DNA of 41,310 bases, taken from assembly GCA_041663145.1 (NCBI GenBank), contig JBAZRG010000005.1, positions 1-41,310 of the forward strand, read 5' to 3'. The notes beneath the pieces are model-generated. The model ran no database searches and had not been told where the DNA came from. It was given only the letters and a program-made list of their open reading frames with translations. Position 1 is the stretch's first letter. Each line of letters starts with the position of its first letter. Made by a program: the position numbers and the translations under genes. Source of the stretch: Minisyncoccota bacterium. GTDB taxonomy: Bacteria > Patescibacteriota > Minisyncoccia > Phycocordibacterales > PALSA-1337. Shown here one piece after another: positions 6,799 to 33,062 of the stretch.

Positions 6799-7880
6799 AA
6801 AGGATTGCGCGCGCCTCGAATCTCAAAGTGTACATGGGGACCTGTAGATAGCCCTGTCGATCCCATAGAACCGATAACTTCACCTTGAAGGACTTTTTCA
6901 CCAACAACCACGGAGCTTTTTTGCATATGCCCATAAAGAGTCTGTGTGCCATTTGAATGTGAAATAACGATGTAATTACCATAACCACCATTCCATGCTC
7001 CATTCATACGATTGATGATAATAGTACCGGAAGCAGAAGCTCGAATCGGAGTACCGACCGGACCAGCTATATCTATGCCATTGTGTCCATGTAGACCCTG
7101 AGTCCTGGTACCACCGACGACTGGCCGTATGAAATATCCTGAAATAGTAGGCCAATTTTGACCATCTAGTAAAGGCTGAGTCAGGGAATTTTTTGAAGCT
7201 GACGTAGAACGGATTTGTGGAGCGGCAAGTTCAGCATTAGGAATGATGAGATGTTGACCTACAAATATCTTTGAAGACACCAATAAATCATTGTAAGCAA
7301 GTATCTCATTTGTATCAGCATTGTATTTCTTGGCTATGGATTGGAGATTTTCACCTTTAATCACAGTGTGATCTAGACCTGAAATCGGCAAAATGACCAA
7401 AGTCTGGCCAGTTTTAAGGACTGATTTACTTCCAATATTGTTTGCCCATAGAATCGTATTGACTGATACGTTGAACATCTTAGCGACACTAGAAACAGTA
7501 TCACCTTCACGTACTACATAAGTGCTGATTTTTGTATTATCTATATCCTTATCGACAGAATTTGAAAGCGCCAAGTCTGGTACCAGAGATTCATCATCGA
7601 TAGGTACGATATCGGTCAATCCATCAGGGTTTGGATCGCGATTCGCGGCGGCTGCTAACAAAGTAATATTCTGAGAAGTAATTATCTTGCCGGGACGATT
7701 GATTTTGGCTGAAGCGGACTCACCAGCCACAAGGGAAGACATAAATGAAATAAGACCGGCCTTGGCAATCTTATCACAAGAAAATACTATTGAGACGGCG
7801 AGAACTATAACAACTACAAACAAAGTGATGCGTCTTTTAATCAATCTATTTTCAGTTGTTTTTTTTGAATGTAATTGCAT
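6795..7880 (-). CDS. LysM-repeat M23-family peptidoglycan endopeptidase
   Basis: ORF 6795..7943 (GTG). The ATG at 7880 (MQLHSKKTT..) precedes the TM anchor. There are two LysM repeats (YVVREGDTVSSVAKMF..; HTVIKGENLQSIAKKY..) and M23 motifs (HNGIDIAGPVGTPI, GSTGLSTGPHVHFEI). The start codon is uncertain. Confidence 0.9.
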   Translation of the reverse strand: MQLHSKKTTENRLIKRRITLFVVVIVLAVSIVFSCDKIAKAGLISFMSSLVAGESASAKINRPGKIITSQNITLLAAAANRDPNPDGLTDIVPIDDESLVPDLALSNSVDKDIDNTKISTYVVREGDTVSSVAKMFNVSVNTILWANNIGSKSVLKTGQTLVILPISGLDHTVIKGENLQSIAKKYNADTNEILAYNDLLVSSKIFVGQHLIIPNAELAAPQIRSTSASKNSLTQPLLDGQNWPTISGYFIRPVVGGTRTQGLHGHNGIDIAGPVGTPIRASASGTIIINRMNGAWNGGYGNYIVISHSNGTQTLYGHMQKSSVVVGEKVLQGEVIGSMGSTGLSTGPHVHFEIRGARNPF

Positions 7881-8175
7881 AACATAAATATTCTTTCCGC
7901 AAGTCATCCATAACTGAGATTGGGCGCTCTGAACTAGTTTCACTTATATTTATATGGCTCAACTTAGCCACTTTGCTAAAATAAGATATAAGGTGACTTA
8001 CCTAGGTTATCAAGTGCCGGATTATTGTCAACCGAAGATGTGCACAGCTATTTTTATTGCTATTTTGTCAACTAATATGATGTGGTTTTGATAAAAACAT
8101 TTGACTCGCACTTCTAATTAGGATGAAGCGTACGGAGGGACATATTGTAGGGGGTTATTATGATAAACTACCCCC

Positions 8176-11250: not shown

Positions 11251-11281
11251 AGAAAAATTATGTGAAAATAAAAGGTATCTC

Positions 11282-12301
11282 TTAAAGAGAGGACCCAACC
11301 ATCGGTGTTATGGCACCTTCGGAGGATATGCTTACGCAACCGGTACCGGCAAAAACACTACATTGACCGGCTCCAGGCATATATTCGCCGAGCAACCAAA
11401 CTGTAAATGGAATATTGTATGACAAAAAGGCCTGAGTTCCGGTCATATATGTGAGAAGTGCCGGATAAGTTGGTGGCAAAGGAGTGAGGGTAATCAACCA
11501 ATTTTGACTGCAAGAACAATAGAATGAAAAGAGTATGGCTCCACCAAAAGGCGAACCGGTAGTTTGCGCGTTGGCGATCTTTGGTTCGACAGTCCAGTTC
11601 AATTTTGCCAATATACGGCTCAACAACGGGCGAACTGGCGATTCTTTCGGAATATAATAAGAAATATTATTTTCAACCAAATCAATAAAAGTCTCTTGCA
11701 AGTTTGTCGATGTTGCTACATCTCTATATATAAGAGACTTTATTTTTTCTATTTCACTCTTTGCAATGCCTTTTTTCAAAGAAACAGTTTCGACTGCAGA
11801 TATAAATTTGTCTATATTTTTTAGGTTTGGATTCTCTGGATTTGAAGTTGAAGCTATATCTGTATCGTTATTTGTATTGTCCAAATTTTCATTCGACACA
11901 ACAGGAGCAACGACAACAGGGAAGGGTTTAGTGACTGAAATCGTCCCATTTAAGACTTTTCTAGTAGAATTTCCTACAATACCAGTCCCTCTGCTCAAAT
12001 CATTGGGTTTCAAAATATCATTCGGATACAATTCCTGAAAACGAATAACCGCCAAATGCGTTAAATTACCAAAATAAGTAGTTTCTTGACCTAAAGAACC
12101 ATAGCTCACACTACTAACCGTGGTTCTTGGGTCTTTATTTAGTATTTTTTGCAATTCACGCACATCTTCACCAGTCATACCCATCTTCAATGTTCTTTCG
12201 AAAGAAAAGGCATCAGCTTTATGTGAATCTGCAACGAATGTGAATAAGAAAATTAATCCAAAGAGCGTAATTTTCAGAATATTTAAGACCAATCTATTCA
12301 T
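11282..12301 (-). CDS. Secreted peptidoglycan-binding-domain protein with Cys-containing C-terminal domain
   Basis: ORF 11282..12310 (TTG). The ATG at 12301 gives MNRLVLNILKITLFGLIFLFTFVADSHKADA, which looks like a signal peptide. A PG_binding_1-like motif is present (LKMGMTGEDVRELQKIL...FGNLTHLAVIRFQ). The C-terminal ~100 aa contain four Cys (FYCSCSQNW ... GQCSVFAGTGCVS) in no family I recognise. Confidence 0.8.
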   Translation of the reverse strand: MNRLVLNILKITLFGLIFLFTFVADSHKADAFSFERTLKMGMTGEDVRELQKILNKDPRTTVSSVSYGSLGQETTYFGNLTHLAVIRFQELYPNDILKPNDLSRGTGIVGNSTRKVLNGTISVTKPFPVVVAPVVSNENLDNTNNDTDIASTSNPENPNLKNIDKFISAVETVSLKKGIAKSEIEKIKSLIYRDVATSTNLQETFIDLVENNISYYIPKESPVRPLLSRILAKLNWTVEPKIANAQTTGSPFGGAILFSFYCSCSQNWLITLTPLPPTYPALLTYMTGTQAFLSYNIPFTVWLLGEYMPGAGQCSVFAGTGCVSISSEGAITPMVGSSL

Positions 12302-12394
12302 CGCTTTCAATTATAGCATTCAAGCATTTACTTTATCGAATACTATCCCCATATTTTATATGAGCTTAGGCACTCTCTAAGCTATAATTATAGT

Positions 12395-13291
12395 ATGGCG
12401 ATTTTCTACCCGCGAAAACAAACGGCTATAATATTTATTGTATGTTTAGTGGTCATAATTGCTGCCATGTATTTCTCTGATACTAGTCTAGTAGCAAAAA
12501 AAGCCAAGCAACTGAACGACAGTTCGCCTGTGATCGCCGTAAAAACTGATGATACAAAGACAATAAAAACTCTTGATGGAAAAGACTGGAAAGAACAATT
12601 CTTTGATGTAACAAAAAACTCATCTGCTTATAAAGCAGAACCTCAGACAGAAGTAACGTCTATCGAAGAACCTGTCACGGTTACGGATCAGTTTGGTCGC
12701 GACTTTTTTGCCCGTTATATGTTACTGAAACAAAACAATCTAACTGAAGATGATGAATCAATAAAAGCCGTAATAGATCAAAGCATGGATGAGATAGCAA
12801 CGCAGGTATCTCAACCGAAACTCTATTTCAGAAAAGATATTCTGGTATCTGAAAATAGCGGACCTGTTGCCATAAAAACCTATGCCAATGCTGTAGGGTC
12901 TCTATTTTATGCAAAAGCTCCTCGCGAGAATGCCGCTCTCATAGCCAGTCAAGCTCTAGATGCCAATGATCCTGCGGAACTAGTCAGTATCCCCCCAATA
13001 ATCAATAGTTACACTGCACTTCTTGCTGATCTCAAACGTTTACCAGTACCAAAAGAGTTGGCTGATCATCATATCGATCTTATAAACGGTATAAGCGCCA
13101 TGCTTTTCGTCTCAGATGGGATGAACAAAGTCTTTACTGATCCGATCCAATCCCTCGTGGCACTCAATCTGTACGGAACAGCCCAAGATGCTTTGCGTGG
13201 ATCACTGCTTCAATTCAAAATATACTTCGCAGACAATAAAATATCTTTTACGCCTGCCGAGTATGGAAGTTTTTTTGCTACAATAAAATAA
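12395..13291 (+). CDS. Hypothetical N-terminally anchored protein (first gene of T4SS-like operon)
   Basis: 298 aa. One N-terminal TM (AIIFIVCLVVIIAAMYF) followed by a mostly helical-looking ectodomain. The next ORF starts 4 nt after its stop. The position would suit a VirB8-type bitopic component, but I see no sequence evidence for that. Confidence 0.7.
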   Translation: MAIFYPRKQTAIIFIVCLVVIIAAMYFSDTSLVAKKAKQLNDSSPVIAVKTDDTKTIKTLDGKDWKEQFFDVTKNSSAYKAEPQTEVTSIEEPVTVTDQFGRDFFARYMLLKQNNLTEDDESIKAVIDQSMDEIATQVSQPKLYFRKDILVSENSGPVAIKTYANAVGSLFYAKAPRENAALIASQALDANDPAELVSIPPIINSYTALLADLKRLPVPKELADHHIDLINGISAMLFVSDGMNKVFTDPIQSLVALNLYGTAQDALRGSLLQFKIYFADNKISFTPAEYGSFFATIK

Positions 13292-13295
13292 ATCC

Positions 13296-14993
13296 ATGCC
13301 TAAACTATTTACACATTTCAAAAAAACTTTCATAGGCTTAGGTATATTCGCTATTATTTTTACGTCTCTCGCTATCGCTCCTTCGAAGGCAGAAGCTCAA
13401 GCTGGTACCGTACCGATAGGCACGCACTTGGACTTCAATAGCATCATGGACCATCTCAAAGAGTTCGTTCTCGATAAAGCGGCAGTCGCAATCGCCAATC
13501 AAGTCCTCCAGAGAATGACCGCGAGCGTCGTCGGCTGGATCAATAGCGGTTTTGAGGGCAGTCCGGCATTCTTACAAAATCCAGAAGGATTCTTTCTCGA
13601 TGTAGCGGACCAAGTGACGGGTGAATTCTTGCTGGGTAGTCCTTTATCTGCGTTGTGTTCACCGATCAGTATCGATATTAGGTTATCTTTGGCTTTGAGT
13701 CAGACTGAAATGTTGCAAAATCGGTATACATGTACTCTAAACAAAATCATCCAAGCACAAAAAAACGGACCTGACATCACAATTAACGGTGAAGTCGTAA
13801 ATTCTTCTGGAGCAACGGACGATTTTACGAATGGTAATTTTTACGCAGGAGGTTGGGATGCATTCATGGCTCTAACGACTGAACCACAAAACAATCCTTC
13901 AGGTGCTTTCTTGATGGCGGAAAGCGATCTTAATGTCGCAATATCAGAAAAAAAGATAGCGATAAAAGCCGACCTACAAATGGGTAACGGATTTATGTCA
14001 TGGGAAAAATGTAAAGACGTCACAGCTCAAGCCAATGCTGGCGCATACGACAAGGAAGATCAACTATTCAAGAGTGGAAATCAAACTGTGAATACGGGCA
14101 AGACCGATCTCAATAAAAATACATCATTAAAATCCAAAGTTGATAAAAATGGCAATGTTACATATCAGGATTGTCAGGTTCAAACACCTGGCTCCGTGAT
14201 CGGCGGCACGTTACAAAGACAGCTAAATGTACCTGCTGATAAACTAGTCCTGGTAAAGACAATCAGTGACAGTATCGATGCCATAATGGGTGCATTGGTA
14301 AATCAGATGCTGACACAAGGTCTAGCATCACTCAGTAAAGGTGGATCATCGGTGAGTGGTGACGGTAGGGCATACCTCACGGAATTACAGGATGAAGCAA
14401 ACCGCAAAGACAACACTACTACACAAAGTCAGATCGCAGATGCATTGACGGTCCAAAACTCCAATCTCGAAAATTACAAATCGATATACGACGAAGCCGT
14501 GGCACTCATAACCTCAGTCCAAACTGCGTTAAATTCGGCTCGAGCATGTTTTGACACAAAATCGAAAAACCTAAGCTTGGGACAAGATAAGGAGATGAAC
14601 TATGCTCAGAACAAAATCGCAGGCATCGATACTATCATCGCCAACCGCATATATCCGATCTTACTCTCTGCACTCACAAAACAAAAAGAGGCGACAGATA
14701 TGCTTGCAGAACAAGAGCAACAGACGAATGATGCGGCATCAGGTATCGCTGGTGATTTCGTCCTCGATTCATCGAATGATCCGACTGTAAATCCATTTGA
14801 TGATTTCCAGGACTCAGTCGCAGACTCAGAAGTCGCACTAAAAGACAATCTTCAAGCCAGCACAATCGCTACCACCGATATAACAAAAGCAAGAAAAGAA
14901 TTGGAGGCAATCAGAAAAGAGACCGATTCACTCATGAAGCAATCTCAGGAATTCCAAGCTTCCTGCACAGCGTTTCCAAACAATATGGATTGA
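13296..14993 (+). CDS. Hypothetical secreted protein, 565 aa
   Basis: Signal-peptide-like N-terminus (FIGLGIFAIIFTSLAIAPSKAEA/QA), several Cys, and a Q/E/K/D-rich helical C-terminal third. Its stop TGA (14991-14993) overlaps the TTG at 14990 of the next ORF. Confidence 0.75.
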   Translation: MPKLFTHFKKTFIGLGIFAIIFTSLAIAPSKAEAQAGTVPIGTHLDFNSIMDHLKEFVLDKAAVAIANQVLQRMTASVVGWINSGFEGSPAFLQNPEGFFLDVADQVTGEFLLGSPLSALCSPISIDIRLSLALSQTEMLQNRYTCTLNKIIQAQKNGPDITINGEVVNSSGATDDFTNGNFYAGGWDAFMALTTEPQNNPSGAFLMAESDLNVAISEKKIAIKADLQMGNGFMSWEKCKDVTAQANAGAYDKEDQLFKSGNQTVNTGKTDLNKNTSLKSKVDKNGNVTYQDCQVQTPGSVIGGTLQRQLNVPADKLVLVKTISDSIDAIMGALVNQMLTQGLASLSKGGSSVSGDGRAYLTELQDEANRKDNTTTQSQIADALTVQNSNLENYKSIYDEAVALITSVQTALNSARACFDTKSKNLSLGQDKEMNYAQNKIAGIDTIIANRIYPILLSALTKQKEATDMLAEQEQQTNDAASGIAGDFVLDSSNDPTVNPFDDFQDSVADSEVALKDNLQASTIATTDITKARKELEAIRKETDSLMKQSQEFQASCTAFPNNMD

Positions 14994-14998
14994 TAAAA

Positions 14999-16906
14999 AT
15001 GAAGAAATATTTACCACAAATTATAATTTTAACCCTGATCGCAACGGTGTGTGCGGTATTTCCAACACACGTTGTTGATGCTGAAACAGGTGGTGCGGTA
15101 AATGCAATTCTCGGAACATTTTTCAATGTAACTTTTGGCACAGCCCTCCAACTCATTGGTTATATTCTATACACTGTCCTTACGATAGTAAGCTTTGGTC
15201 TGACCATGTCAGCCATGGTCCTCAATGCATCCATTTACCTAACGACTCACCTCGGTATATTTATAGACAATACTCCGGCAATATATACGGTTTGGCGTAT
15301 TCTTCGTGATATTTCTGGGATGTTTCTGATCTTCCTGCTTCTCATAGCCGCAATCCAAACGATCCTAGGCATACAAAAAGCAAACTATAAGCAAACTCTG
15401 ATCAGTATAGTTATTGTCGGTATATTGATAAATTTCAGCTTCTTCTTTACTACCGTCCTCATAGATGCTTCCAATGTCGTCTCGCTTCAATTATACAATT
15501 CTATAGCTCCTGATATTTCCGCTGTAGAATGTGATAGTGCGGCCGCAACATCTAAAAACGCCAATTCATATTTCAATTGCATATCTAGTTCAGTAATAGG
15601 TGCCAGAGCTGGCGGACTTGCTACAGTCATTACAAATTCACTAAACATTGTTCAGTGGCGAAGTAGTAAATCAACTCTACTTCAAACAGATGATAGGGTA
15701 CTAGGGTCGACAGATATAGGAGCTCGTATGATATTGGTAAATACGGCTGCTATATTCGTAACCATATTGGCCGCGCTCAGTATGTTAGCGGCTGCGGCTG
15801 CGGCGATATGGCGCATCTGTGTACTTATCATGCTATTGGCATTCTCTCCACTATGGATTGCCGGTTATGTTCTACCTCAAACCAAAGCCGAAGTATCCAA
15901 CAAATGGGTAAAACATCTGAAAGCAAATTTGATATTCCTACCTGTATATCTACTACTCATGTACGTTGTCTTAACTATCATTACCGCTCTAGATCTTGGC
16001 GCGCTCGGAAATATAGGGTCAACGAACGTCTCTGATGTTGCGAATATGACATGGTATGCACCATATCTGCAACTTTTCGTTGGTTTTTCGATCATTATAT
16101 TTATGATCAATCTTCCACTAGTAACTGCATTCAATATAGCCGGATCAACAGGCAACATCATCGAAAAAATCGCCAAGCAAGCTACTGGGACTATCAGTGG
16201 TTGGGCGAAGAAAGGTGCATTGGGTGGTGTCGGTATGGCATGGAACAATACTGGCGGACGGTTGGCTAGTAATGTCGGCAACAGTTCAACGCTCAGAAAT
16301 TTTGCTGCGCGAAGTGTAGTTGGTGGATTGGCCTTAAGAGGAGTCAAAGGAGTAGCCACAAATTATGATCGAAATATCGAAGAACAGGTAAAAACAAGAA
16401 CTAAATTTGCAGAATCACTTGGTCACGATCCACATGAATTGATTCCGTATCAAGCCCGATTAAAATCGTTAAATCTAGATCTGGTTTCAGCCAAATCTCG
16501 AAATGATAAAGTCGAAGTTGATAAGTTAGAGAAAACGATTGGCATAACTAAAGGTAAAATCGCAGAAATTGAAAACCGAAGGGCACGGACTTATGCAAAC
16601 AGACTCGAAACTTCAATCCTTTCTCGCATGAGTGTAAGTAATGGTATCGCCGCTGCAAAGATCCAAATCCCGATTCTTGAAAAAGAGATAACAAGAAAGA
16701 AAGAAGGTTTGAAGGAAATAAGAGACGATATCAAGCAACTAAACAAAGCAATTAGAAGCAATCCAGCTGCTGGAGGCATAGCGGCTGGAACAGCAAATGC
16801 CGCACAGCTAGCCGATCTCACAGATCTTTACAATCAAGAACTCGCTAAAGTTGGCTCTATTAACGCTGATGAATCAACCTTAGAAAATCTAAAATTATCA
16901 ACATGA
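14999..16906 (+). CDS. VirB6/TrbL-like polytopic membrane protein
   Basis: ORF 14990..16906 (TTG); the ATG at 14999 gives MKKYLPQ... About 8 hydrophobic helices lie in the first ~400 aa, including an Ala-rich segment (LAALSMLAAAAAAIWRICVLIMLLAFSPLWIAG). A ~230-aa hydrophilic coiled-coil-like tail follows. Topology and operon position match VirB6/TrbL/PrgH-type channel proteins. The call is by architecture, not by a recognised motif. Confidence 0.65.
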   Translation: MKKYLPQIIILTLIATVCAVFPTHVVDAETGGAVNAILGTFFNVTFGTALQLIGYILYTVLTIVSFGLTMSAMVLNASIYLTTHLGIFIDNTPAIYTVWRILRDISGMFLIFLLLIAAIQTILGIQKANYKQTLISIVIVGILINFSFFFTTVLIDASNVVSLQLYNSIAPDISAVECDSAAATSKNANSYFNCISSSVIGARAGGLATVITNSLNIVQWRSSKSTLLQTDDRVLGSTDIGARMILVNTAAIFVTILAALSMLAAAAAAIWRICVLIMLLAFSPLWIAGYVLPQTKAEVSNKWVKHLKANLIFLPVYLLLMYVVLTIITALDLGALGNIGSTNVSDVANMTWYAPYLQLFVGFSIIIFMINLPLVTAFNIAGSTGNIIEKIAKQATGTISGWAKKGALGGVGMAWNNTGGRLASNVGNSSTLRNFAARSVVGGLALRGVKGVATNYDRNIEEQVKTRTKFAESLGHDPHELIPYQARLKSLNLDLVSAKSRNDKVEVDKLEKTIGITKGKIAEIENRRARTYANRLETSILSRMSVSNGIAAAKIQIPILEKEITRKKEGLKEIRDDIKQLNKAIRSNPAAGGIAAGTANAAQLADLTDLYNQELAKVGSINADESTLENLKLST

Positions 16907-17982
16907 TATCATACGACGAAAATACAATATCAGAAAAGTTTTTGAAGTTGCCAGAGGAGATCCAAGTGGCTTTATCTTCTGTAGAAATCGGACGAACAAT
17001 AAAATCAATCGGTGACAAATACGAACTCAAGCTGGATCAAGAACAAATCTTATACGATCAAATAGGTCTTGTTATGCTTGGTTTATTGCCATCAAAAGAT
17101 TTTGTAAAAACATTTTCGAAAGAAGCCAATATTGAAAATGAAGTCTCACATCAAATAGCTTCGGATGTAAACAAAGAAGTCTTTGATAAATTGAAACTTT
17201 CGATGCGCGAAACAGAAGATGAACAAGAACTTCCTGAAACAAAAGTCCCCTCAATTGCTGACGCGTATAAAGAACGACCAACGATTGCGCCATTACCACC
17301 AACACCACCTGCTCCGGTAGTACCGAGAGTAGAAGTTCAAGAAGAAATGGGACCAGCGCCGAGATTTGAACCAAAACCTGAACCAGCACCGACACCACGA
17401 TTGGAGTCGAGATCTGAACCAGCGCCGACGTCAACACTTAGATCAACACCAGAACCGATTCCAGCTCCACAACCAAGACCTCAGTATACTCCACCAAAAA
17501 ATTTGGATGCTCTAACCTTCCAAAGGGAACCAGTCAAGCCACTATTTGACAGTGCAACTACAGAAAGAGATAGGGAAAAATATCTCTCACATCTTGAAAA
17601 TCCGCCTTGGAAAAAACAGCCTGAGATCAAAATTGAGAAAGAACAAAATGAACCAGAACAAGAACCAATACAACCAATTAACATAAACATCAAAAAAGAA
17701 TCAGACGTTGTAATACCCACTAATATAAACATTAAGAAAGAAACGAACACTGTACCACCAACACACACAGAACCACTTGTAGATCTATTACTCTCAAATT
17801 CGACTGGTCGACCGACTGAGATCACAAGAAACAAAGTCGAAGCGGCCGTACCAGAAAATTTACCAGTAGTTCCAAATGCGGAAAACCAAAGTCCACCAAC
17901 AGGAACTACCAAACCAACATCGCCGACGAACATTCCATCGCGACGAATCGGTCCTGATCCTTACAAAGAGCCGGTAGAGTAG
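16903..17982 (+). CDS. Hypothetical Pro-rich protein
   Basis: 359 aa with an ATGA start/stop overlap to the upstream gene. A ~110-aa helical N-domain is followed by P/E/T-rich repeats (PAPRFEPKPEPAPTPRLESRSEPAPT..; duplicated NINIKKE). No obvious TM or signal peptide. Confidence 0.65.
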   Translation: MISYDENTISEKFLKLPEEIQVALSSVEIGRTIKSIGDKYELKLDQEQILYDQIGLVMLGLLPSKDFVKTFSKEANIENEVSHQIASDVNKEVFDKLKLSMRETEDEQELPETKVPSIADAYKERPTIAPLPPTPPAPVVPRVEVQEEMGPAPRFEPKPEPAPTPRLESRSEPAPTSTLRSTPEPIPAPQPRPQYTPPKNLDALTFQREPVKPLFDSATTERDREKYLSHLENPPWKKQPEIKIEKEQNEPEQEPIQPININIKKESDVVIPTNINIKKETNTVPPTHTEPLVDLLLSNSTGRPTEITRNKVEAAVPENLPVVPNAENQSPPTGTTKPTSPTNIPSRRIGPDPYKEPVE

Positions 17983-18010
17983 GGTATACTATATAGTGAA
18001 ATAAACAAAA

Positions 18011-18445
18011 ATGCGTTTCCAAGTTCCCCAATTCATCGAAGTTGAAGATAAGATATTTGGTCCGCTGACCTTGAAGCAATTCATATATCTGGTCGGTGGA
18101 GGAGGTTTATCGTTTCTTATTTATACGATACTAGACAGTTTGATACTCTCTATCATTCCTATAGCCATCGTTATGGCCATATCGGCGACTTTTACCTTTT
18201 ATAGAGTCAACAATAAACCTTTTGTGGTTGTAGCCGAAAATGCATTCAAATATTTCTTTGGAAATAAGCTCTATATTTGGAAAAAACAGGACAATATAAA
18301 GCCAAAAGAGGATGAATCTGTAGATAAAGAAGTAAAAAATTATGCTTCCATCATGGTGCCGAAAATATCAGACAGTAAGCTAAAAGATCTGACGTGGAGT
18401 CTGGATATCAAAGAAAGCGTCTATTCAAACAAAAATCAAAGGTAA
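18011..18445 (+). CDS. PrgI-family (VirB3-like) small membrane protein
   Basis: 144 aa. The N-terminus MRFQVPQFIEVEDKIFGPLTLKQFIYLVGGGGLSFLIY plus a second TM matches the PrgI-family pattern of Gram-positive-type T4SS. It lies just upstream of the VirB4-like genes. Confidence 0.7.
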   Translation: MRFQVPQFIEVEDKIFGPLTLKQFIYLVGGGGLSFLIYTILDSLILSIIPIAIVMAISATFTFYRVNNKPFVVVAENAFKYFFGNKLYIWKKQDNIKPKEDESVDKEVKNYASIMVPKISDSKLKDLTWSLDIKESVYSNKNQR

Positions 18446-18447
18446 AT

Positions 18448-19095
18448 ATGGCAAAATCAAAACCACAAAAAACTACTCAGGATTTTGTTCCCATTCAGGA
18501 GATTCGTGATGGAGTAATAATCCTCAAAAATGGCGGTATGCGCTCGATAATATTGGCATCATCGCTCAATTTTGCCTTGAAATCACAAGATGAACAGAGC
18601 TCGATCCTTATGCAATTTCAAAATTTTGTCAATTCTCTCGATTTTTCGATTCAGATTTTCATTCAATCGAAAAAACTCGATATCAGACCATATATAGCGC
18701 TCCTTGAGAACCGCTACAAGGATCAGCTCACTGAATTGATGAAAATACAGGTCAGGGAATACATAGACTTCATCAAAACATTCGTCGAAAATACAAATAT
18801 AATGTCAAAAAGCTTCTTCGTCGTCATTCCTTATGATCCAGCAATGATGAGTGCCAGCAAAAATCCACTCACAAACTTTCTACCACGAAAAGGCGATGCA
18901 GAGAGTCCAGCTGAAACAGCTGATGTTCGATTCCAAGAATATCGTAGTCAATTAGAGCAGAGGGTAGCCGTTGTCGAACAAGGACTGGTGCGTTGTGGTA
19001 TCAGGGTAGCTGAGCTCGGCACCGAAGAAGTCGTCGAGCTATATTACAAACTCTTCAATCCCGGCGAAACCGAGAAACCGATCCAAATAACATGA
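18448..19095 (+). CDS. Stand-alone VirB4 N-terminal-domain-like protein (no ATPase motifs)
   Basis: ORF 18394..19095. The ATG at 18448 follows the upstream TAA by 2 nt. TQDFVPIQEIRDGVIILKNGGMRSIILASSLNFALKSQDEQSSILMQFQNFVNSL resembles the N-terminal region of Gram-positive VirB4/TcpF/PrgJ-type proteins. No Walker motifs. ATGA overlap with the downstream VirB4-like gene. Confidence 0.6.
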   Translation: MAKSKPQKTTQDFVPIQEIRDGVIILKNGGMRSIILASSLNFALKSQDEQSSILMQFQNFVNSLDFSIQIFIQSKKLDIRPYIALLENRYKDQLTELMKIQVREYIDFIKTFVENTNIMSKSFFVVIPYDPAMMSASKNPLTNFLPRKGDAESPAETADVRFQEYRSQLEQRVAVVEQGLVRCGIRVAELGTEEVVELYYKLFNPGETEKPIQIT

Positions 19096-20915
19096 GTATA
19101 TTTTCAAAACTATTCCATAAAAAAGAGGAATCACCGATCGTTTCCATATTACCTGAAGAGATCTATCAGGCCGGCGTTTTGGAACTGAAAGACATCATCG
19201 CTCCTTCTGCTCTAAAGATCAACCCAAAAGAACTAAATCTAGGTGAAAAAGTTGGCAGAACACTATTCGTCATTTCATACCCACGATTTCTCGATGAAAG
19301 TTGGTTCGCTCCGATCATCAATCTAGACAAAGTATTCAACGTTTCTATATTCATCCATCCGGTAGACACCGCCAAGATTCTCCGACATTTCCAAAAGAAA
19401 GTTGCCGAAGTCCAAAGCCAGATATCTAGAAGGGAAGACAAGGGTTTGGTACGCGATCCAGCTCTGGATACAGCGTACCAAGATCTTGAAGCACTTCGCG
19501 ATCAACTCATGCAAGCTCAGGAACATCTTTTTGATGTTGGAGTTTACATCACTATATTCGCAGACAATGACAATGAGCTAGACAAACTAGAATCTGAAAT
19601 CAAATCGATCCTTGAATCAAAACTTGTTTATGTAAAACCAGCATTATTCCAACAAGAACAAGGCTTCAAAAGTGTTATTCCAATAGGAGATGATCAGCTC
19701 GCTGTACATTCCAAACTCAATTCTTCACCTCTTTCTAGTTTATTTCCATTTGTCTCATTCGATCTAACGTCAGACAAAGGCATCCTCTACGGTATCAATA
19801 GACACAATTCTTCTTTGGTATTGTTTGATAGATATTCTCTGGAAAACTACAATTCTGTAACATTTGCCGTAGCTGGAGCCGGAAAATCGTATTGCACAAA
19901 ACTTGAGATACTTCGCACACTCATGTTCGATACAGATGTTATCGTCATCGATCCGGAAAAAGAATATGAATACATGTCAGAAGCGACTGGTGGTAAATAT
20001 TTTAATATTTCTCTAAATTCCGAACATCATATCAATCCATTCGATTTGCCTATACCAACCGAAGATGAATCGGCCTCGGATGTTTTGCGTTCAAATATCA
20101 TCAATCTGGTAGGACTGTTCCGAATCATGCTTGGCGGTCTCACACAGGAAGAAGACGCCATCATCGATAGGGCAATATCAGAGACATATGCACTCAAAGA
20201 CATAACTCCAGAATCAGATTTTCGAACTGTCGAACCACCATTGTTATCAGATTTTGAACTAGTCTTGGCTGGCATGGAGGGTGGAGAATCGCTAGTACAG
20301 AGACTGACTAAATACACAAAAGGTACTTGGGCCGGTTTCATAAATCGTCCATCCAATGTCGACATAAATAAAAAATTCGTCGTATTTTCTCTGCGCGATA
20401 TGGAAGATGAACTCAAACCGGTAGCCATGTACATCGTAACTCACTATATCTGGAATGCCATTCGCAAAGTAAAAAAGAAAAGATTATTGGTGATCGACGA
20501 GGCCTGGTGGATGATGAAATCAGAAGATACGGCTTCATTCCTATTCGGTCTTGCCAAAAGAGGTCGCAAATATTTCCTAGGATTGGCGACGATCACGCAG
20601 GACGTAGATGACTTTCTAAAATCACCATACGGAATGCCGATTTTGACAAACTCATCCATCCAAGTACTTTTGAAACAGTCTCCGACGGTCATAGACCACA
20701 TCCAGCAGACATTTAACCTGACAAACGAAGAAAAGTACCTGTTACTCGAGTCTGATGTCGGTGAAGGCATGTTTTTCGTCGGTCTCAAACACGTAGCCAT
20801 CAAAATAGTGGCTTCTTACACCGAAGATCAGATAATTACCACAAATCCCGCTCAAGTCTTACAAATAGAAAAAGCCAAAAAAGATCTCGAGGCAGCCGAA
20901 CAGCTGAATAAATAA
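19092..20915 (+). CDS. VirB4/TrbE-like type IV secretion ATPase
   Basis: 607 aa. Walker A FAVAGAGKSYCTK, Walker B RLLVIDEAWWMM, GLATITQDVDDF, and an N-domain (GRTLFVISYPRFLDESWFAPII..VSIFIHP) typical of VirB4-family proteins. Confidence 0.9.
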   Translation: MSIFSKLFHKKEESPIVSILPEEIYQAGVLELKDIIAPSALKINPKELNLGEKVGRTLFVISYPRFLDESWFAPIINLDKVFNVSIFIHPVDTAKILRHFQKKVAEVQSQISRREDKGLVRDPALDTAYQDLEALRDQLMQAQEHLFDVGVYITIFADNDNELDKLESEIKSILESKLVYVKPALFQQEQGFKSVIPIGDDQLAVHSKLNSSPLSSLFPFVSFDLTSDKGILYGINRHNSSLVLFDRYSLENYNSVTFAVAGAGKSYCTKLEILRTLMFDTDVIVIDPEKEYEYMSEATGGKYFNISLNSEHHINPFDLPIPTEDESASDVLRSNIINLVGLFRIMLGGLTQEEDAIIDRAISETYALKDITPESDFRTVEPPLLSDFELVLAGMEGGESLVQRLTKYTKGTWAGFINRPSNVDINKKFVVFSLRDMEDELKPVAMYIVTHYIWNAIRKVKKKRLLVIDEAWWMMKSEDTASFLFGLAKRGRKYFLGLATITQDVDDFLKSPYGMPILTNSSIQVLLKQSPTVIDHIQQTFNLTNEEKYLLLESDVGEGMFFVGLKHVAIKIVASYTEDQIITTNPAQVLQIEKAKKDLEAAEQLNK

Positions 20916-20959
20916 TAAAAAAGACGCATAGATAAGTCACCAATGCTATAATCATCTAT

Positions 20960-21451
20960 ATGGCATCAATTGGGAATAAAGCAAAAGGTGGTGGCTGGTT
21001 GATCCTGTATATCATCACCGGCGTCGTCGATATTTTCCAGATCTTTGCAACCGCTACCGGAGTCGGAATCGTTGCAAGTGAAGCTCTAGAAGCTATCATG
21101 CCTTTTGTTTTGGCTGGCACACTCCAATTTTTGCTCAAAGTTTCACTGATTTCGCACCCATCTCGACTCTTATCTATTATCGGAGCAACAGGTTTTGATG
21201 CTTTAACTGGCGGTGTGGCTCCTTTTTGGATATTAGATGTCTGGTATGTACAAAGAACTGTCAAAAGTGAGGATACTGAAGTTTTGTCAGAGATGAATAA
21301 AGAGGCATTTATGAAACAAAACATCGCACAACCACTTTATAGCAATGGACGTCGTAATGTCACAACTTCCAATATCGAAAATACTGAAAATCAATCCAGA
21401 CCGGTTGTCATGGATGGAGTTCGGGCCCCTGGTGGGGGATTAAATAGATAA
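20960..21451 (+). CDS. Hypothetical small integral membrane protein
   Basis: 163 aa. Three hydrophobic segments in the first ~95 aa, then a polar tail. No family recognised. Confidence 0.6.
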   Translation: MASIGNKAKGGGWLILYIITGVVDIFQIFATATGVGIVASEALEAIMPFVLAGTLQFLLKVSLISHPSRLLSIIGATGFDALTGGVAPFWILDVWYVQRTVKSEDTEVLSEMNKEAFMKQNIAQPLYSNGRRNVTTSNIENTENQSRPVVMDGVRAPGGGLNR

Positions 21452-21501
21452 ATGGTGATAACTATATATTTGAATTCGTAATTCATGGTAAAATAATACC
21501 G

Positions 21502-22545
21502 ATGATTTCTCACTTCAAATTGACATTTGTATTGATCGGCATACTAATCGTTCCAATTTTGCTTACAAATACGGTAAATGCTCAAGGTATTCCATTTTCA
21601 GCCGGAGTGGAGCTTACAACTTCGACCGATAGTCCTGTACCCGGACAAGATCTCACCATAACAGCCAATAGTTATAGTGCGAATATAAACTCAGCCAAAA
21701 TAACTTGGACTGTAGACGGTAAGGTTGTGAGCAGAGAAGTTGGTAAAACCACACTAAACATAAAAGCTCCTGCCATAGGAAAGCGTATGATAGTCAAATT
21801 TAGTGCGGTAACGACTGATAATATAGCTCTATCGACTTCTATCACCATCACTTCCGGATCTATTGATCTAATAATCGAATCCGATGGGTATGTACACCCA
21901 TTCTTCAAGGGAAAAATACCGACAGTTTACCAAAATACCGTAAAAGTAATTGCCGTACCACACATCGCCAATTCTGCAGGCGTTGAATATGATCCGAAAT
22001 CTCTTGTGTATCAATGGAAAAAGAATGGACGAGCCATCGAAGACCAGTCTGGCTACGGAAAACAGTCTGTCACTTTGGAAGGGGATATCGTACCTCGCCC
22101 ATACGATCTCTCTGTTACAGCGACCCTCCGTGATGGGACTGCTCAAGCAATGGGTATCATCAGTATTTCAGCATCTTCTCCTAGTCTTAATTTCTACGTT
22201 AATGATCCTCTATACGGATCGATGTTCAACTCTGCCATAAAAAATCAGCTACGTATTGGCTCACAAAAAGAAATGGGTGTGATCGCTGTGCCATATGGAT
22301 TCAATGTCCAACAAAATAATTACAACAATCTCTCCCTAACTTGGTCTATTAACAATTCCACACGTTCCGAGCTGGCTGGAAATAAATCTATAATTCTCCG
22401 ATCTCCGAGTGGTCAGGCTGGTTCATCGAATATTAAGCTGGATATTAAAAATAACAAAAACATTTTACAAGGTGCAAATGGCGGTTTTTCAGCCGTATAT
22501 ACAGCCAACAATGACGATACAACAAACACAACTGTTACATTTTAA
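21502..22545 (+). CDS. Hypothetical secreted protein with three tandem beta-rich repeats
   Basis: 347 aa with a signal-like N-terminus (LIGILIVPILLTNTVNA/QG). Three ~100-aa units share the pattern V/I-x-A-x-P/N ... (I/L/V)-x-(W/Y)-x-(V/W/I) ... G ... x-(L/I)-x: ITANSYS..ITWTVDGK; VIAVPHI..LVYQWKKNGR; VIAVPYG..LSLTWSINNS. This suggests Ig-like or beta-sandwich domains. Confidence 0.7.
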   Translation: MISHFKLTFVLIGILIVPILLTNTVNAQGIPFSAGVELTTSTDSPVPGQDLTITANSYSANINSAKITWTVDGKVVSREVGKTTLNIKAPAIGKRMIVKFSAVTTDNIALSTSITITSGSIDLIIESDGYVHPFFKGKIPTVYQNTVKVIAVPHIANSAGVEYDPKSLVYQWKKNGRAIEDQSGYGKQSVTLEGDIVPRPYDLSVTATLRDGTAQAMGIISISASSPSLNFYVNDPLYGSMFNSAIKNQLRIGSQKEMGVIAVPYGFNVQQNNYNNLSLTWSINNSTRSELAGNKSIILRSPSGQAGSSNIKLDIKNNKNILQGANGGFSAVYTANNDDTTNTTVTF

Positions 22546-22554
22546 TACATAAAC

Positions 22555-23727
22555 ATGAATTCCAAATCAATCAATAAAACAATAAGCTTTCTACTCATAA
22601 TATTCGTATTTGGAGTACTTCCAACTTTTTCTGCAAAAGCCGAAGATACTTATACGCTTCTGGCACCTTTGCCTTGCATAGCGACTCCAGATACGACAGG
22701 CGTGGATGCACAGGGTAATGAGATAACTGTCCCTGGACAAAAATGCACAACAAGTGACCCAATCAAAAATATGAATCTGAAAGATTATCTGCAATATGCC
22801 GTAAATCTATTTATCGCTCTAGCATCTGTAGCGGCGGTATTTATGATCGTTCGAGGAGGTTTCCTGTACATGACCAGTACCATCCCTGGAATGAAAAATG
22901 ATGGATTGGCAATGGTTAAAAACGCTATTATCGGTCTTCTAATGGTCTTGTGTTCATATATCATCTTGCGCACAATCGATCCGAGATTGGTAAACTTGCC
23001 GTCAACGATCGTGCCACCGCTTGAGCTCTCCAGTAAATTGACAGACAAAACTGATGATTTCTTTGATTCGCTGATATCTGATGCACAAAAATACGATGCA
23101 TATGCCAAACAATTTGTAGAGGATGCTAGAGCAGCAAAAGTCGCATCCGCTGGACTGGAAGCACAAAAAGTAGATCTCCAGGAACAACTAAAGACTGCAA
23201 TGCAAAACAGCGATGAGACTGCGATAACAAACATTCAAAACCAAATATCTAATATTGACAATGAGATAGCCGAGAAAAAAAATTTGATTGATATAGACCT
23301 AGCAAAGTCAATAATGGATGGTGGGGTTTCCGCAACTTCACAAAAGATAAATATATTAGCCATGGATCAAAAACTCACTCTCGACGAAGTTGATAAAATT
23401 GTGGCTTCCAGTCTTGATTTTATCTCCGAGACTGCAAGAGAAAGAAATGCTAGTCTAGCAAGTCGTGGCGCCTATGATCAGATTCAAAAAATTGATGCTA
23501 AGGTGGTTGAAAGTGAAGTAGCTGTCCAATTAATAGGCGTTGAAGCTAAAGCAAGTGCATCTTGGACAGCTTGGTTTGGTTTGATTGGTAATTTAGACAA
23601 AGCAAAACTTAATTCAGAATTAGATAAAATTGCACCTCAAATAGGTGATATTCGTGATCCAGTTGTAAAAAAAGCTATGCAGGACAAATTCACTGCAATC
23701 AAAACAAAAATTTCAAAACTAAAATAA
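22555..23727 (+). CDS. T4SS-pilin-like (TrbC/VirB2-type) protein with long coiled-coil C-terminal extension
   Basis: 390 aa. Signal-like N-terminus (FLLIIFVFGVLPTFSAKA), then two hydrophobic helices joined by a short polar loop (YAVNLFIALASVAAVFMIVRGGFLYMTS..KNAIIGLLMVLCSYIILRTI), as in T4SS pilins. The remaining ~240 aa are a heptad-like Q/E/K/A/D-rich sequence. Confidence 0.65.
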   Translation: MNSKSINKTISFLLIIFVFGVLPTFSAKAEDTYTLLAPLPCIATPDTTGVDAQGNEITVPGQKCTTSDPIKNMNLKDYLQYAVNLFIALASVAAVFMIVRGGFLYMTSTIPGMKNDGLAMVKNAIIGLLMVLCSYIILRTIDPRLVNLPSTIVPPLELSSKLTDKTDDFFDSLISDAQKYDAYAKQFVEDARAAKVASAGLEAQKVDLQEQLKTAMQNSDETAITNIQNQISNIDNEIAEKKNLIDIDLAKSIMDGGVSATSQKINILAMDQKLTLDEVDKIVASSLDFISETARERNASLASRGAYDQIQKIDAKVVESEVAVQLIGVEAKASASWTAWFGLIGNLDKAKLNSELDKIAPQIGDIRDPVVKKAMQDKFTAIKTKISKLK

Positions 23728-23728
23728 G

Positions 23729-25006
23729 ATGAAAAACCGCTCAAACATCATCAGTATCGCTCTACTACTCATCGTCATTATGGCAGGTCTGGCATATTGG
23801 TACTTCGTATTCAACAAATCCGACAATGCAGATCCAGTCACAATCGATACTGGTGACGATACAGCCAACGGTTTTATGCCATTGAACGGTGATCCGAGCA
23901 TAACACCGGATTTTGGTACCGGTAATGATGACATCCGGGCAACGCCTGAGACAAATTCAGCCACACCAACATCAGCCACTATCCCGACACTCAGACTGCT
24001 CAGTAACACACCAGTGGGAGGATATGGCGCTTTAACAACAGCAACAACTACGATCATTCGTTGGGTAGATCGTGGAAGAGGTAATATTTTTGAAGTTAAT
24101 ACCTTGAAAAATGATGTTGTAACTTTATCAAATACAGTTCTGCCACGAGTATATGACAGTATTTGGAATACCAACCTTACTGCTTTCATTGGTACACTCA
24201 TATCGAGCGATTCATCAAAAACAACAACACTGTATGCTGAACTACAAAAACAAACCATACCAACATCAACAACTCCATTTTCGCTTAAAGGCAAAAACAT
24301 ATCCGACTCGCTGATCGGCTATGCAGTTTCTCCGAACGGCAATCAAATATTTCTAATGATCAATGAGAATGAGAAGGGCATAGGCTACACAGCCAATTTT
24401 GACGGCAGTCGTATGACTCGCATATTCGATACGCCGATGACCGAAGTCAACGTTGAATGGCCTGAAACAAACACAATAGCAATAACCACAAAGGGTATAT
24501 CTAGCCAGCCGGGTTTCCTTTATTTCGTAAATCCAAAAACCGGTGTATGGAAAAAAATTCTCGGTCCAGTATATGGTCTTTCTACTCGAACAAGCCATGA
24601 TGCAAAATATGTCATAGTTTCTGCTTCCGGCTCAAACAATGACGTCCTAACTGGTATTTACAATGTTACAAAATCGGCAAATACAGATGCAGTTGTTCGA
24701 ACATTGGCAGACAAATGTTCATGGGGAAACTTTTATAAAAAACTTGTTTACTGTGCAGTCCCATCAAAACCAACAAGTGGTGTATATCCCGATGCTTGGT
24801 ATAGAGGAACTCTCTCACTAGTGGACAAAATATGGCAAATCGACGCAGAAACCAACGAAGTTAACCTGATATCTTCGATAGTTGACGAATCCGACAGAGT
24901 CATCGACGCTTTCAATCTCGGTACAGACAATAAAGATCAATTCTTATTCTTTGTGAATAAGAACGACCTATCACTCTGGTCTCTAGACTTGGTCGCAAGC
25001 CAATAA
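23729..25006 (+). CDS. Hypothetical N-terminally anchored protein with beta-propeller-like (PD40/TolB-like) ectodomain
   Basis: 425 aa. TM IISIALLLIVIMAGLAYWYFVF, a disordered linker, then repeated strand-like blocks including YAVSPNGNQIFLM and SHDAKYVIVSAS, which resemble PD40-type blades. It starts 1 nt after the upstream stop. Confidence 0.65.
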   Translation: MKNRSNIISIALLLIVIMAGLAYWYFVFNKSDNADPVTIDTGDDTANGFMPLNGDPSITPDFGTGNDDIRATPETNSATPTSATIPTLRLLSNTPVGGYGALTTATTTIIRWVDRGRGNIFEVNTLKNDVVTLSNTVLPRVYDSIWNTNLTAFIGTLISSDSSKTTTLYAELQKQTIPTSTTPFSLKGKNISDSLIGYAVSPNGNQIFLMINENEKGIGYTANFDGSRMTRIFDTPMTEVNVEWPETNTIAITTKGISSQPGFLYFVNPKTGVWKKILGPVYGLSTRTSHDAKYVIVSASGSNNDVLTGIYNVTKSANTDAVVRTLADKCSWGNFYKKLVYCAVPSKPTSGVYPDAWYRGTLSLVDKIWQIDAETNEVNLISSIVDESDRVIDAFNLGTDNKDQFLFFVNKNDLSLWSLDLVASQ

Positions 25007-25015
25007 TCTGTTTAC

Positions 25016-25167
25016 GAGCTTGGTGAACATTGTTCCGAAACGATTCGCAATGTGATTTGAACCCCGAACAAATTGCCCATATTTGAGTAGTTCCATCTAC
25101 TCAAATATGGTTGCAATTTGGAGTGGGTGACCTTGCGAATCGTTTCGGAACAATGTTCACCAAGCTC
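25016..25167. repeat. 152-nt extended hairpin element with 35-bp perfect terminal arms (element D)
   Basis: Arms 25016..25050 (GAGCTTGGTGAACATTGTTCCGAAACGATTCGCAA) and 25133..25167 are exact reverse complements. The inner 14-bp helix CCATATTTGAGTAG/CTACTCAAATATGG surrounds loop TTCCAT, and CAAATTGC/GCAATTTG also pair. It fills the convergent spacer between the last T4SS-like gene and yidC. Confidence 0.9.
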
Positions 25168-25169
25168 AT

Positions 25170-25946
25170 TTAGACATTATTGCCTATATGCTTCACTGAT
25201 TGGAGATATTTTTTCCTAATATATAGCTCTTGGAGTAGGGTAGCGAAAGCACTAACTGACCAATATATAGCTATTATCGATGCCGCTTGGGGAAACTGGG
25301 CCGGAATCAACCAATATGTTGAGGCAAACGCTACTACCGGCAACATAAACTTCATCTGCTTATTCATCGAATGAGACAATTGTGAAGCCTTGTCGAGAGT
25401 TCCGCCATTGCGAAGAGTTTCTTCGGCCATGGATTTTTGTTGGCGCATTGCCACGGAGAAGTGCATCTGTAGATATTGGGCTAGAGCCGTGATCAGAGAC
25501 AAAATAATGCTCTTTTGTGTAAGATCTAGACCAAGCAATGTTGGTAGAACTACCGGTGGAGAAATAAAACTGTATAGAAGCGTAGGATCGATCGTTGGAA
25601 TGATCTTATAAAAAACCGAAATCAAGGCCAGCAATATCGGTAACTGGATGATGAGAAGTAAAATTCCTGAAAACGGCTTGATCTTCTTTTGTTTATACAA
25701 TTCCATGATCTTCAATGCCTGCTGTTGTTTGTCAGTAGAATATTGCGCTCTGATCTTGGCAGCTTCCGGCTCAACTTCTTTCATACGAACTTGGGTCAAT
25801 AGGGAGCTCTTGGAGAGGGGAAACAGTATGATACGGATGATAATGGTAAAGATAATAACAGCTACACCAACATCAATACCTGGCAATAGATCCATAATAC
25901 CGACGAGACCATTATAAAGAGGTAAAAATATAAATTTTGTATACAT
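25170..25946 (-). CDS. yidC: Membrane protein insertase YidC (short form)
   Basis: 258 aa. GVAVIIFTIIIRIILFPLS, MKEVEPEAAKIRAQY and MELYKQKKIKPFSGILLLIIQLPILLAL are typical of YidC/Oxa1. It is downstream of rnpA, as in the conserved rpmH-rnpA-yidC order. Confidence 0.9.
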   Translation of the reverse strand: MYTKFIFLPLYNGLVGIMDLLPGIDVGVAVIIFTIIIRIILFPLSKSSLLTQVRMKEVEPEAAKIRAQYSTDKQQQALKIMELYKQKKIKPFSGILLLIIQLPILLALISVFYKIIPTIDPTLLYSFISPPVVLPTLLGLDLTQKSIILSLITALAQYLQMHFSVAMRQQKSMAEETLRNGGTLDKASQLSHSMNKQMKFMLPVVAFASTYWLIPAQFPQAASIIAIYWSVSAFATLLQELYIRKKYLQSVKHIGNNV

Positions 25947-33058: not shown

Positions 33059-33062
33059 GAGT

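Follow-up and report, generated by a model that had tools for sequence, protein, structure and literature searches.

Type IV secretion systems (T4SS) of Patescibacteria, a group of the candidate phyla radiation that accounts for much of the diversity of bacteria and whose cells seem to live attached to those of a host, include the closest described relatives of the locus analysed here, a cluster of eleven open reading frames (ORFs; O1 to O11) at positions 12395-25006 of contig JBAZRG010000005.1, from a Minisyncoccota bacterium (assembly GCA_041663145.1). The window is this entire contig of 41,310 nucleotides (nt), or 41 kb, and our statements on gene absence hold for the window contig only, except where relatives are named. 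In Southlakia epibionticum, the T4SS (SEML1_0006-0019) was essential in transposon sequencing (Tn-seq), for epibiotic growth (Wang et al. 2023, PMC10633639). As described in that report, it is most like Gram-positive conjugative systems, its pilins are essential, and it has no recognisable coupling protein or relaxase. This Saccharibacteria system made the Patescibacteria T4SS the first shown to be essential for the growth of its owner. A survey of 2,474 virB4 genes then described a Patescibacteria VirB4 clade related to the MPF_FATA type (Quiñonero-Coronel et al. 2025, PMC12102498). According to the survey, genes for TrsD, VirB3/PrgI, VirB6 and VirB2-like pilins are found near virB4 in this clade, homologues of the type IV coupling protein (T4CP) lie mostly far from it, relaxases occur in only 103 Patescibacteria genomes, and the neighbours of virB4 in Paceibacteria are dnaA, dnaN, rnpA, ksgA and rpmH. 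The Paceibacteria set of the survey contains relatives of the window (Zambryskibacteria, and Parcubacteria C7867-005 and C7867-006). A 2025 review repeats the same points (PMC12857230).

As far as these systems are described in the two papers, the cluster resembles them in gene order (a VirB6-like gene, one or two unknown genes, PrgI, a TrsD-like gene and VirB4; SEML1_0013 to SEML1_0008 in S. epibionticum), in having a PF18895 pilin within the cluster and no adjacent relaxase or coupling protein, and in having separate TrsD and PrgI/VirB3 genes beside a VirB4 of MPF_FATA affinity. Its location is also shared: it is chromosomal and near dnaA, dnaN, rnpA, ksgA and rpmH, with rsmA (ksgA) upstream and the rest downstream in the window. 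One Paceibacteria entry of the survey has a LysM-"VirB1" as gene 251, VirB3 as gene 259, TrsD as 260, VirB4 as 261, VirB2 as 265 and a T4CP match as 171 (PMC12102498), and this entry mirrors the window, where a LysM/M23 peptidase likewise lies eight genes 5' of the PrgI/VirB3 gene (O5). In contrast to S. epibionticum, with about six short pilins arrayed, the window has one long pilin of 390 amino acids (aa), including a tail of ~250 aa; its VirB6-like and PrgI proteins have 638 and 144 aa, compared to 1088 and 300 aa; no NTF2/VirB8-like protein was recognised in the window; and O1, O2, O9 and O11 have no counterpart stated in the description of that system. The existence, composition, lack of a relaxase and origin-proximal position of such systems are already in the literature (PMC12102498, PMC10633639). 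The window is a good example of a published architecture, not a discovery, and opens no new question; the novelty that an initial annotation, made from the sequence alone, had claimed for the cluster was not borne out. What we add is the contrast in conservation between motor and surface proteins, structure-level support for the VirB6-like subunit, a single long-tailed pilin, domain descriptions of O9, O11, O2 and O4, and a positionally conserved hairpin, probably a terminator. The locus is also a compact Paceibacteria example usable for structure modelling, with a split VirB4, a single long pilin and six conserved partners.

Our results make it reasonably probable that the cluster is the Paceibacteria form of the vertically inherited Patescibacteria T4SS, a VirB4-driven machine for pilus assembly or host contact, and not for conjugation. 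In this reading the system descends from monoderm, MPF_FATA-type conjugation machinery and is no longer in a mobile element. A VirB3-TrsD-VirB4 module, a VirB6-like protein, a pilin and a set of partners that are secreted or anchored are inherited together beside dnaA. The initial annotation had proposed a chromosomal, non-conjugative, envelope-spanning apparatus in an episymbiont, and this is supported by the fixed synteny and the absence of linked mobility genes. The MPF_FATA systems (Trs of pGO1/pSK41, Tra of pIP501, Prg of pCF10, and the CTn-type CD1110 family of C. difficile) share with the window a CD1110-family VirB4, a PrgI-type VirB3, a separate TrsD/TraD as in pGO1, and the monoderm layout lacking VirB7, VirB9 and VirB10. 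Unlike them, the window lacks a relaxase and a coupling protein of the VirD4/PcfC type, its operon encodes no hydrolase of the VirB1 type, and a VirB8-like protein was not recognised. The cluster does have a VirB2-like pilin, which is absent from the Gram-positive systems, and it resides in the core chromosome instead of a mobile element. The MPF_T systems (R388 Trw and Agrobacterium VirB) are alike in their VirB2-, VirB3- and VirB4-like subunits and probably in a VirB6-like one, the model of O3 resembling the TrwI/VirB6 of the R388 stalk; in contrast to them, the window lacks the VirB7, VirB9 and VirB10 core, VirB11 and VirD4, and has no recognisable VirB5. The virB5 position is occupied by O2, whose low-confidence model gave no fold match.

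The motor module is formed by O5, O6 and O7, all encoded, like the rest of the cluster, on the + strand. O7 (19092..20915; 607 aa) corresponds to the middle and C-terminal P-loop domains of a VirB4-type ATPase. It matched NCBIfam conju_CD1110 over profile positions 162-733 (1.8e-111; 373.7 bits, exceeding the curated cut-off of 325) and Pfam P-loop_TraG (4e-26), with TraC and VirB4_CagE also matched, and both the Walker A (GAGKS) and Walker B (LLVIDEAW) motifs are intact in the translation. O5 (18011..18445; 144 aa), two genes 5' of O7, is a hydrophobic hairpin with transmembrane (TM) segments at residues 27-66, and belongs to the PrgI/VirB3 family of small membrane partners of VirB4 (Pfam PrgI, 9.1e-11; 42.6 bits, above the gathering score of 27). 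Both assignments, first made from the sequence alone in the initial annotation, therefore survive searches with profile hidden Markov models (HMMs). O6 (18448..19095; 215 aa) is a free-standing VirB4 N-terminal domain of the TrsD/TraD family (NCBIfam TrsD, 1.2e-6), and matches positions 98-233 of the VirB4_plasma profile (1.8e-12) and positions 1-118 of CD1110. Since O6 and O7 follow each other in the order of full-length VirB4 profiles, together they represent a VirB4 split at a domain boundary. The split is real and old, given that the two are separate ORFs in 80/80 related loci, where O6 has a median length of 213 aa.

For comparison with relatives we used the best 80 of at least 587 species-level genomes that matched the O7 VirB4. 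All 80 are metagenome-assembled genomes of Patescibacteria (Paceibacterota, Parcubacteria, Zambryskibacteria, Taylorbacteria), with 78-94% VirB4 identity. About 40 of their loci, from distinct Paceibacteria species, had full 10-kb flanks, and in this full-length set the order was (uvrD)-rsmA-O1-O2-O3-O5-O6-O7-O9-O11-yidC-rnpA-dnaA-dnaN-PBP1, with orientations kept and with ORFs of matching size in the slots of O4, O8 and O10. The eleven-gene order is therefore conserved among these Paceibacteria loci, as expected for a vertically inherited locus of the core chromosome and not for an integrated conjugative element (ICE). Median identity to the window was 81% for VirB4 (O7), 64% for TrsD (O6) and 54% for PrgI (O5; orthologues in 78 loci), compared to 59% for DnaA, 59% for UvrD, 51% for DnaN, 46% for RsmA and 40% for YidC, and only ~28-32% for O1, O2, O3, O9 and O11. 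In the closest genome, VirB4 was 94% and DnaA 85% identical, while O1, O2, O3 and O10 were at 30-41%. VirB4 was above DnaA in every listed full-length locus with dnaA, and PBP1 was also below VirB4; the VirB4 values are slightly inflated, since the loci were picked by VirB4 similarity. Judging from these identities, very strong purifying selection acts on the cytoplasmic motor while the surface parts diverge fast, a contrast which fits an organelle for host interaction. We found no statement of it in the available portions of the two papers on Patescibacteria T4SS (PMC12102498, PMC10633639).

Searches against Pfam and NCBIfam found no VirD4 or other coupling protein, relaxase, VirB11 or integrase in the 41-kb window. 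No tRNA was found there, nor att-like flanking direct repeats beyond short, chance-level ones, and GC content stayed at 0.37-0.43 across the window with no compositional step. Family searches confirmed that the flanks are housekeeping genes, as proposed: S15, PNPase, a YifB/ComM-like ATPase, an M23/LysM peptidase, UvrD and RsmA upstream, and YidC, RnpA, L34, DnaA, DnaN, PBP1, RuvC, YebC, RuvB, PilB, TsaE, PolA and HolA downstream. Likewise, no coupling protein, relaxase, VirB11 or integrase was detected within ±10 kb of virB4 in ~55 related loci, a search that covered 46 extra ORFs of at least 250 aa, with ten representatives scanned against Pfam. The absence of conjugation genes and of a repeat-bounded island that the initial annotation had noted thus holds in the window, and the ICE alternative that it had left open finds no linked relaxase, coupling protein, integrase or att repeats, and a position fixed across species. 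The description "without coupling protein" stands for the window contig; it does not extend to whole genomes, as related Paceibacteria are reported to carry distant matches to T4CP profiles (PMC12102498).

O3 (14990..16906; 638 aa) has a signal peptide, ~7 TM helices and, at the C-terminus, a coiled-coil domain of ~200 aa, a topology that fits a polytopic subunit of the VirB6/TrbL type. O3 itself gave no VirB6 match in Pfam, NCBIfam or PDB sequences, and a PDB profile search returned coiled-coil noise. Among its relatives, 2/48 matched Pfam TrbL (1.7e-5), and 8/120 carried precomputed matches to PF19590 or PF04610 (TrbL-type). In a Foldseek search with an AlphaFold2 model of O3 (predicted local distance difference test, pLDDT, 78.6), the sole matches other than coiled coils were TrwI/VirB6 chains of R388 (8rt9_F, 7o3v, 8rtd), with probabilities of 0.97-1.00, E values of 0.05-0.19 and TM-scores of 0.43-0.46 (for 8rt9_F, probability 1.00, E 0.054 and TM-score on the target 0.45). 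The model thus points to O3 as a probable, though not proven, extended VirB6/TrbL-like channel subunit. The original call of an eight-TM VirB6/TrbL protein gains moderate structural support from TrwI, without a direct family match and with a TM count closer to seven.

O10 (22555..23727; 390 aa), three genes 3' of O7, is a VirB2-like pilin near virB4. Its signal peptide, the conserved motif YTxLxPLP and a two-helix core at residues 78-140 are followed by a fast-evolving, poorly conserved coiled-coil extension of ~250 aa at the C-terminus. The match of O10 to Pfam T4SS_pilin (PF18895; 9.3e-6, 26.1 bits) is just below the gathering score of 26.6; 42 of its 43 positional orthologues matched the family (best, 3.8e-12), which bears out the T4SS-pilin-like call by HMM.

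Beyond the motor, the VirB6-like protein and the pilin, the cluster encodes six more conserved proteins, of which four are secreted or anchored in the membrane. O1 (12395..13291; 298 aa) has an N-terminal membrane anchor (TM-like residues 2-35) and an extracytoplasmic domain; Y163, P219 and H226 are invariant among its orthologues (44 loci, median identity 28%), and searches with Pfam, NCBIfam and PDB profiles gave no match. O2 (13296..14993; 565 aa) has a Sec-type signal peptide, a Cys-rich N-terminal domain with conserved W81, G85, G88, P90, C121, C146, C239 and C293, and a C-terminal three-helix bundle. Its AlphaFold2 model had an overall pLDDT of 64 (>90 in the bundle, ~50 in the N-terminal domain); a PDB profile search found nothing, and Foldseek of this low-pLDDT model retrieved generic helical bundles and no VirB5 fold. 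In 5/40 O2 orthologues we found inserted F5/8 type C (discoidin, sugar-binding) domains, as expected for a sugar-binding surface protein, and O2 is a candidate surface or tip component. Matches to DUF4141 in O2 relatives, which could suggest a link to Bacteroidetes TraI, were discounted since they cover residues 21-60, the signal-peptide region. O9 (21502..22545; 347 aa; orthologues in 75 loci) has a signal peptide followed by three homologous immunoglobulin (Ig)-like beta domains of ~100 aa each, and by its sequence is predicted to be secreted or wall-associated. The triple beta-repeat was confirmed by pairwise hhalign comparisons of the blocks (probabilities 89-95%, E 5e-8 to 2e-6), and weak matches to Ig_3, MG4 and Hoc were seen. 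O11 (23729..25006; 425 aa; 59 loci) has an N-terminal membrane anchor and then a probable beta-propeller of the TolB/PD40 type: its orthologue profile retrieved 12 TolB sequences in PDB (E 0.01-0.18), and PD40 and DPPIV_N were matched weakly, by one orthologue each. These repeated but weak TolB matches lend weak support to the propeller reading of the initial annotation.

The two other proteins are not of the secreted or anchored kind. O4 (16903..17982; 359 aa) lacks TM segments and combines a conserved domain of ~100 aa at the N-terminus with a Pro-rich middle of variable length and a conserved C-terminal DPYREP. Positional orthologues of 180-600 aa were found in most loci, with a nearly invariant DPYREP end, and there was no family or PDB match; O4 is probably a cytoplasmic adaptor. 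The DPYREP end may be a docking peptide for another component. O8 (20960..21451; 163 aa) is a small polytopic membrane protein with 2-3 TM segments, with TATAAT at 20947-20952 upstream; a positional orthologue is present in most loci and missing from some, and no Pfam, NCBIfam or PDB match was found. The earlier statement that seven products match nothing recognisable thus stands for O1, O2, O4 and O8, and fails for O6, a member of the TrsD/TraD family. No cluster protein matched VirB8-like (NTF2-fold), PrgL or TcpC families in the Pfam, NCBIfam and PDB profile searches.

In the mechanism that we favour, VirB4 (O7), held at the membrane by VirB3 (O5) and TrsD (O6), would extract the Sec-inserted pilin O10 and, with O3 as a platform, polymerise it to form a surface filament or a short conduit. 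The tail of O10, O2, the Ig repeats of O9, the O11 propeller and O1 would decorate or brace this structure in the wall and touch the host cell. The system would serve host contact, possibly combined with an exchange of material between epibiont and host. Given the lack of a linked coupling protein, relaxase or VirB11, it would not serve conjugation. In Agrobacterium, VirB4 is required for assembly of the T-pilus and dislocates VirB2 from the membrane, whereas VirD4 is dispensable for this assembly. Because VirB4 can drive pilin extraction independently of VirD4, and given the composition of the cluster, assembly of a pilus or host-contact structure is the simplest reading. Several points weigh against it. 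Pilus assembly in Agrobacterium also requires VirB11 and VirB5, which are absent or unrecognised in the window. At 390 aa, O10 has three times the usual size of a pilin, which puts in question whether such a pilin polymerises. To our knowledge, filaments have not been observed for the T4SS of any member of the Patescibacteria. Within the operon, no VirB8-like or VirB1-like part was identified, and the scores behind the VirB6 assignment of O3 are weak (Foldseek E ~0.05; Pfam TrbL in 2/48 relatives). Finally, related Paceibacteria genomes are reported to have T4CP-like genes elsewhere (PMC12102498), and the essentiality of the T4SS was shown in Saccharimonadia, another class, and only there as far as that report goes (PMC10633639).

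A bolder version, which we put forward tentatively, is that O1, O2, O4, O8, O9, O11 and the long-tailed pilin form a Paceibacteria-specific extracellular apparatus without a described T4SS counterpart, replacing VirB8, VirB1, VirB5 and adhesins, and serving as an essential conduit to the host, for feeding or attachment, that possibly imports material. The driver of this apparatus would be the VirB4 motor, with its constraint tighter than that of DnaA.

Among the other explanations, the one that survives best, while still unlikely, is an export machine for proteins or effectors, similar to Ptl, that would act with or without a distant coupling protein, would use the pilin only as a short piston and would push Sec-exported or cytoplasmic substrates through the wall and either into the host cell or onto its surface. 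Bordetella Ptl and Brucella VirB do function without a T4CP (PMC12857230), protein export was the role suggested for the Saccharibacteria system by Wang et al. (PMC10633639), and four of the eleven products (O2, O3, O9 and O10) have Sec-type signals. However, family searches recognised no toxin- or enzyme-like cargo gene in or beside the operon, and the secreted proteins of the cluster keep their positions in every relative, as structural parts would and variable effectors would not. Ptl, a toxin exporter, also differs from the window in being a diderm system with a VirB7-10 core, and so does H. pylori ComB.

ComB is the model for a second explanation, which we regard as rather unlikely: an uptake machine, ComB-like or similar to archaeal Ced, that imports DNA or host molecules for an organism unable to make nucleotides. 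ComB carries out VirB4-based DNA uptake without T4CP or relaxase, which shows that such a machine can be functional and non-conjugative, and its minimal set is that of the window (VirB2, VirB3, VirB4 and VirB6; no T4CP, relaxase or VirB11). O7 also has a partial match to the DNA-import ATPase CedB (7.7e-9), but this match is confined to the P-loop core, and no DNA-binding or nuclease part was found in the operon with Pfam or NCBIfam. The 2025 FEMS review offers a pilus conduit for uptake from the host as speculation (PMC12857230). In S. epibionticum, on the other hand, loss of comEC ends transformation while viability is kept, and the T4SS is essential (PMC12857230); ComEC-dependent uptake of DNA therefore does not account for the essentiality of the T4SS.

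We consider conjugative DNA transfer, with the coupling protein and relaxase encoded elsewhere in the genome, very improbable. The survey reports T4CP-profile matches in 2,918 Patescibacteria genomes, those of related Paceibacteria lying far from virB4, and notes that in conjugative elements the T4CP is often beside the relaxase and not beside virB4 (PMC12102498). Yet the relaxases of the 103 genomes are described as unassociated with T4SS of the Patescibacteria clade, and the T4CP homologue of S. epibionticum as non-essential, in contrast to its T4SS genes (PMC12102498); moreover, the locus in our window has a fixed place in the core chromosome and shows no boundaries of an element. A decaying remnant of an ICE with no present function, which the lack of VirB8, VirB1, T4CP and relaxase in the cluster could suggest, is effectively refuted by the conservation data: the eleven ORFs are intact, dozens of species share their order and orientation, and VirB4 is 78-94% identical, above DnaA.

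Returning to the layout of the operon, all eleven ORFs annotated initially are present, co-directional and tightly packed on the + strand, and the ATGA overlaps reported at 16903 and 19092 were confirmed in the sequence. A further overlap reported at 14993/14990 depends on the start codon of O3: it exists if O3 starts at TTG 14990, and becomes a gap of 5 nt if O3 starts at ATG 14999, as in the database gene call (635 aa). Other junctions have gaps of 2-9 nt, with larger ones (28-50 nt) only before O5, O8 and O9; no Shine-Dalgarno motif was evident at the junctions of O1-O11. The gaps 5' of O5 and O8 contain -10-like hexamers, and that 5' of O9 a weaker one (TAAAAT), which makes internal promoters possible upstream of these three genes. 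In the divergent intergenic region 5' of O1 (12311..12394, + strand), TATAAT at 12383-12388 and TATAGT at 12389-12394 adjoin the ATG, with no Shine-Dalgarno motif. This region is a candidate promoter for the operon, possibly giving a leaderless transcript. All these promoter-like sites are consensus matches only, with no enrichment over shuffled sequences.

At the other end, a long inverted repeat (24998..25185; arms of 56 nt, 88% complementary, with a perfect core of 35 nt) lies between the convergent O11 and yidC. Relatives have hairpins with arms of 17-38 nt directly 3' of the O11 stop, in the same position, and the repeat is probably a bidirectional terminator at the end of the operon. It is one of five long intergenic inverted repeats in the window (10120-10300, 11146-11251, 24998-25185, 32465-32559 and 34680-34843), whose arms measure 25-56 nt; three of the repeats have no mismatch over 30-33 nt, and the five sequences are mutually unrelated. 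In the shuffled window, 0.3 perfect inverted repeats of at least 16 nt are expected. A search with Rfam identified no RNA family in the window, inverted repeats included. Given the hairpins of relatives at the same spot after O11, the five look like long-stem terminators without a U-tract, typical of the lineage.

The proximity of the cluster to the replication origin is suggested mainly by the rpmH-rnpA-yidC and dnaA-dnaN arrangement. The AT-rich dnaA-dnaN spacer (27948-28180), with three DnaA-box-like 9-mers of one mismatch (at 27960, 28050 and 28120), is the likeliest oriC; across the window, DnaA-box 9-mers are not enriched overall (16 found, 12 expected). GC skew was tried for placing the origin and set aside as unreliable, since it showed no simple pattern with gene strand or position. 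If oriC is in this spacer, then the T4SS operon is transcribed toward the origin, head-on to replication, and the orientation of the operon relative to the spacer is kept in relatives.

Around the cluster, the gene for a LysM and M23 peptidoglycan endopeptidase (6795..7943, - strand; Peptidase_M23 5.7e-31, LysM 2.4e-23; DipM/MepM-like in NCBIfam) is the only nearby candidate for a VirB1-type wall-opening enzyme. Its membership in the system is doubtful because it is on the opposite strand, and uvrD and rsmA lie between it and the operon. Divergent from O1, the ORF at 11282-12310 (- strand) encodes a secreted protein that combines a PG_binding_1 domain with a Cys-rich C-terminal domain of unknown family; by tblastn it adjoins the cluster in only ~6/80 relatives, and some more divergent PG_binding_1 proteins are similarly placed (for instance in locus L064). 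The sole PF00437 ATPase of the window (34950-36623, - strand) is of the PilB type (type_IV_pilB 1.5e-137, versus 5.2e-13 for VirB11), 10 kb from the operon among housekeeping genes; this lone PilB lies between ruvB and tsaE, with no further pilus genes nearby in the window. The YebC/TACO1-family ORF (33063-33593, - strand) has only 176 aa, which span the N-domain and a portion of the second domain, and shares ~55 nt with the beginning of ruvC (32576-33118, - strand); it may be truncated or frameshifted. Finally, between pnp and a gene for a DksA/TraR-type zinc finger, the ORF at 3384-4823 (+ strand) encodes a protein of 479 aa whose C-terminal domain had no Pfam or NCBIfam match, with a Pro/Thr-rich N-terminal half and one TM segment near residue 230.

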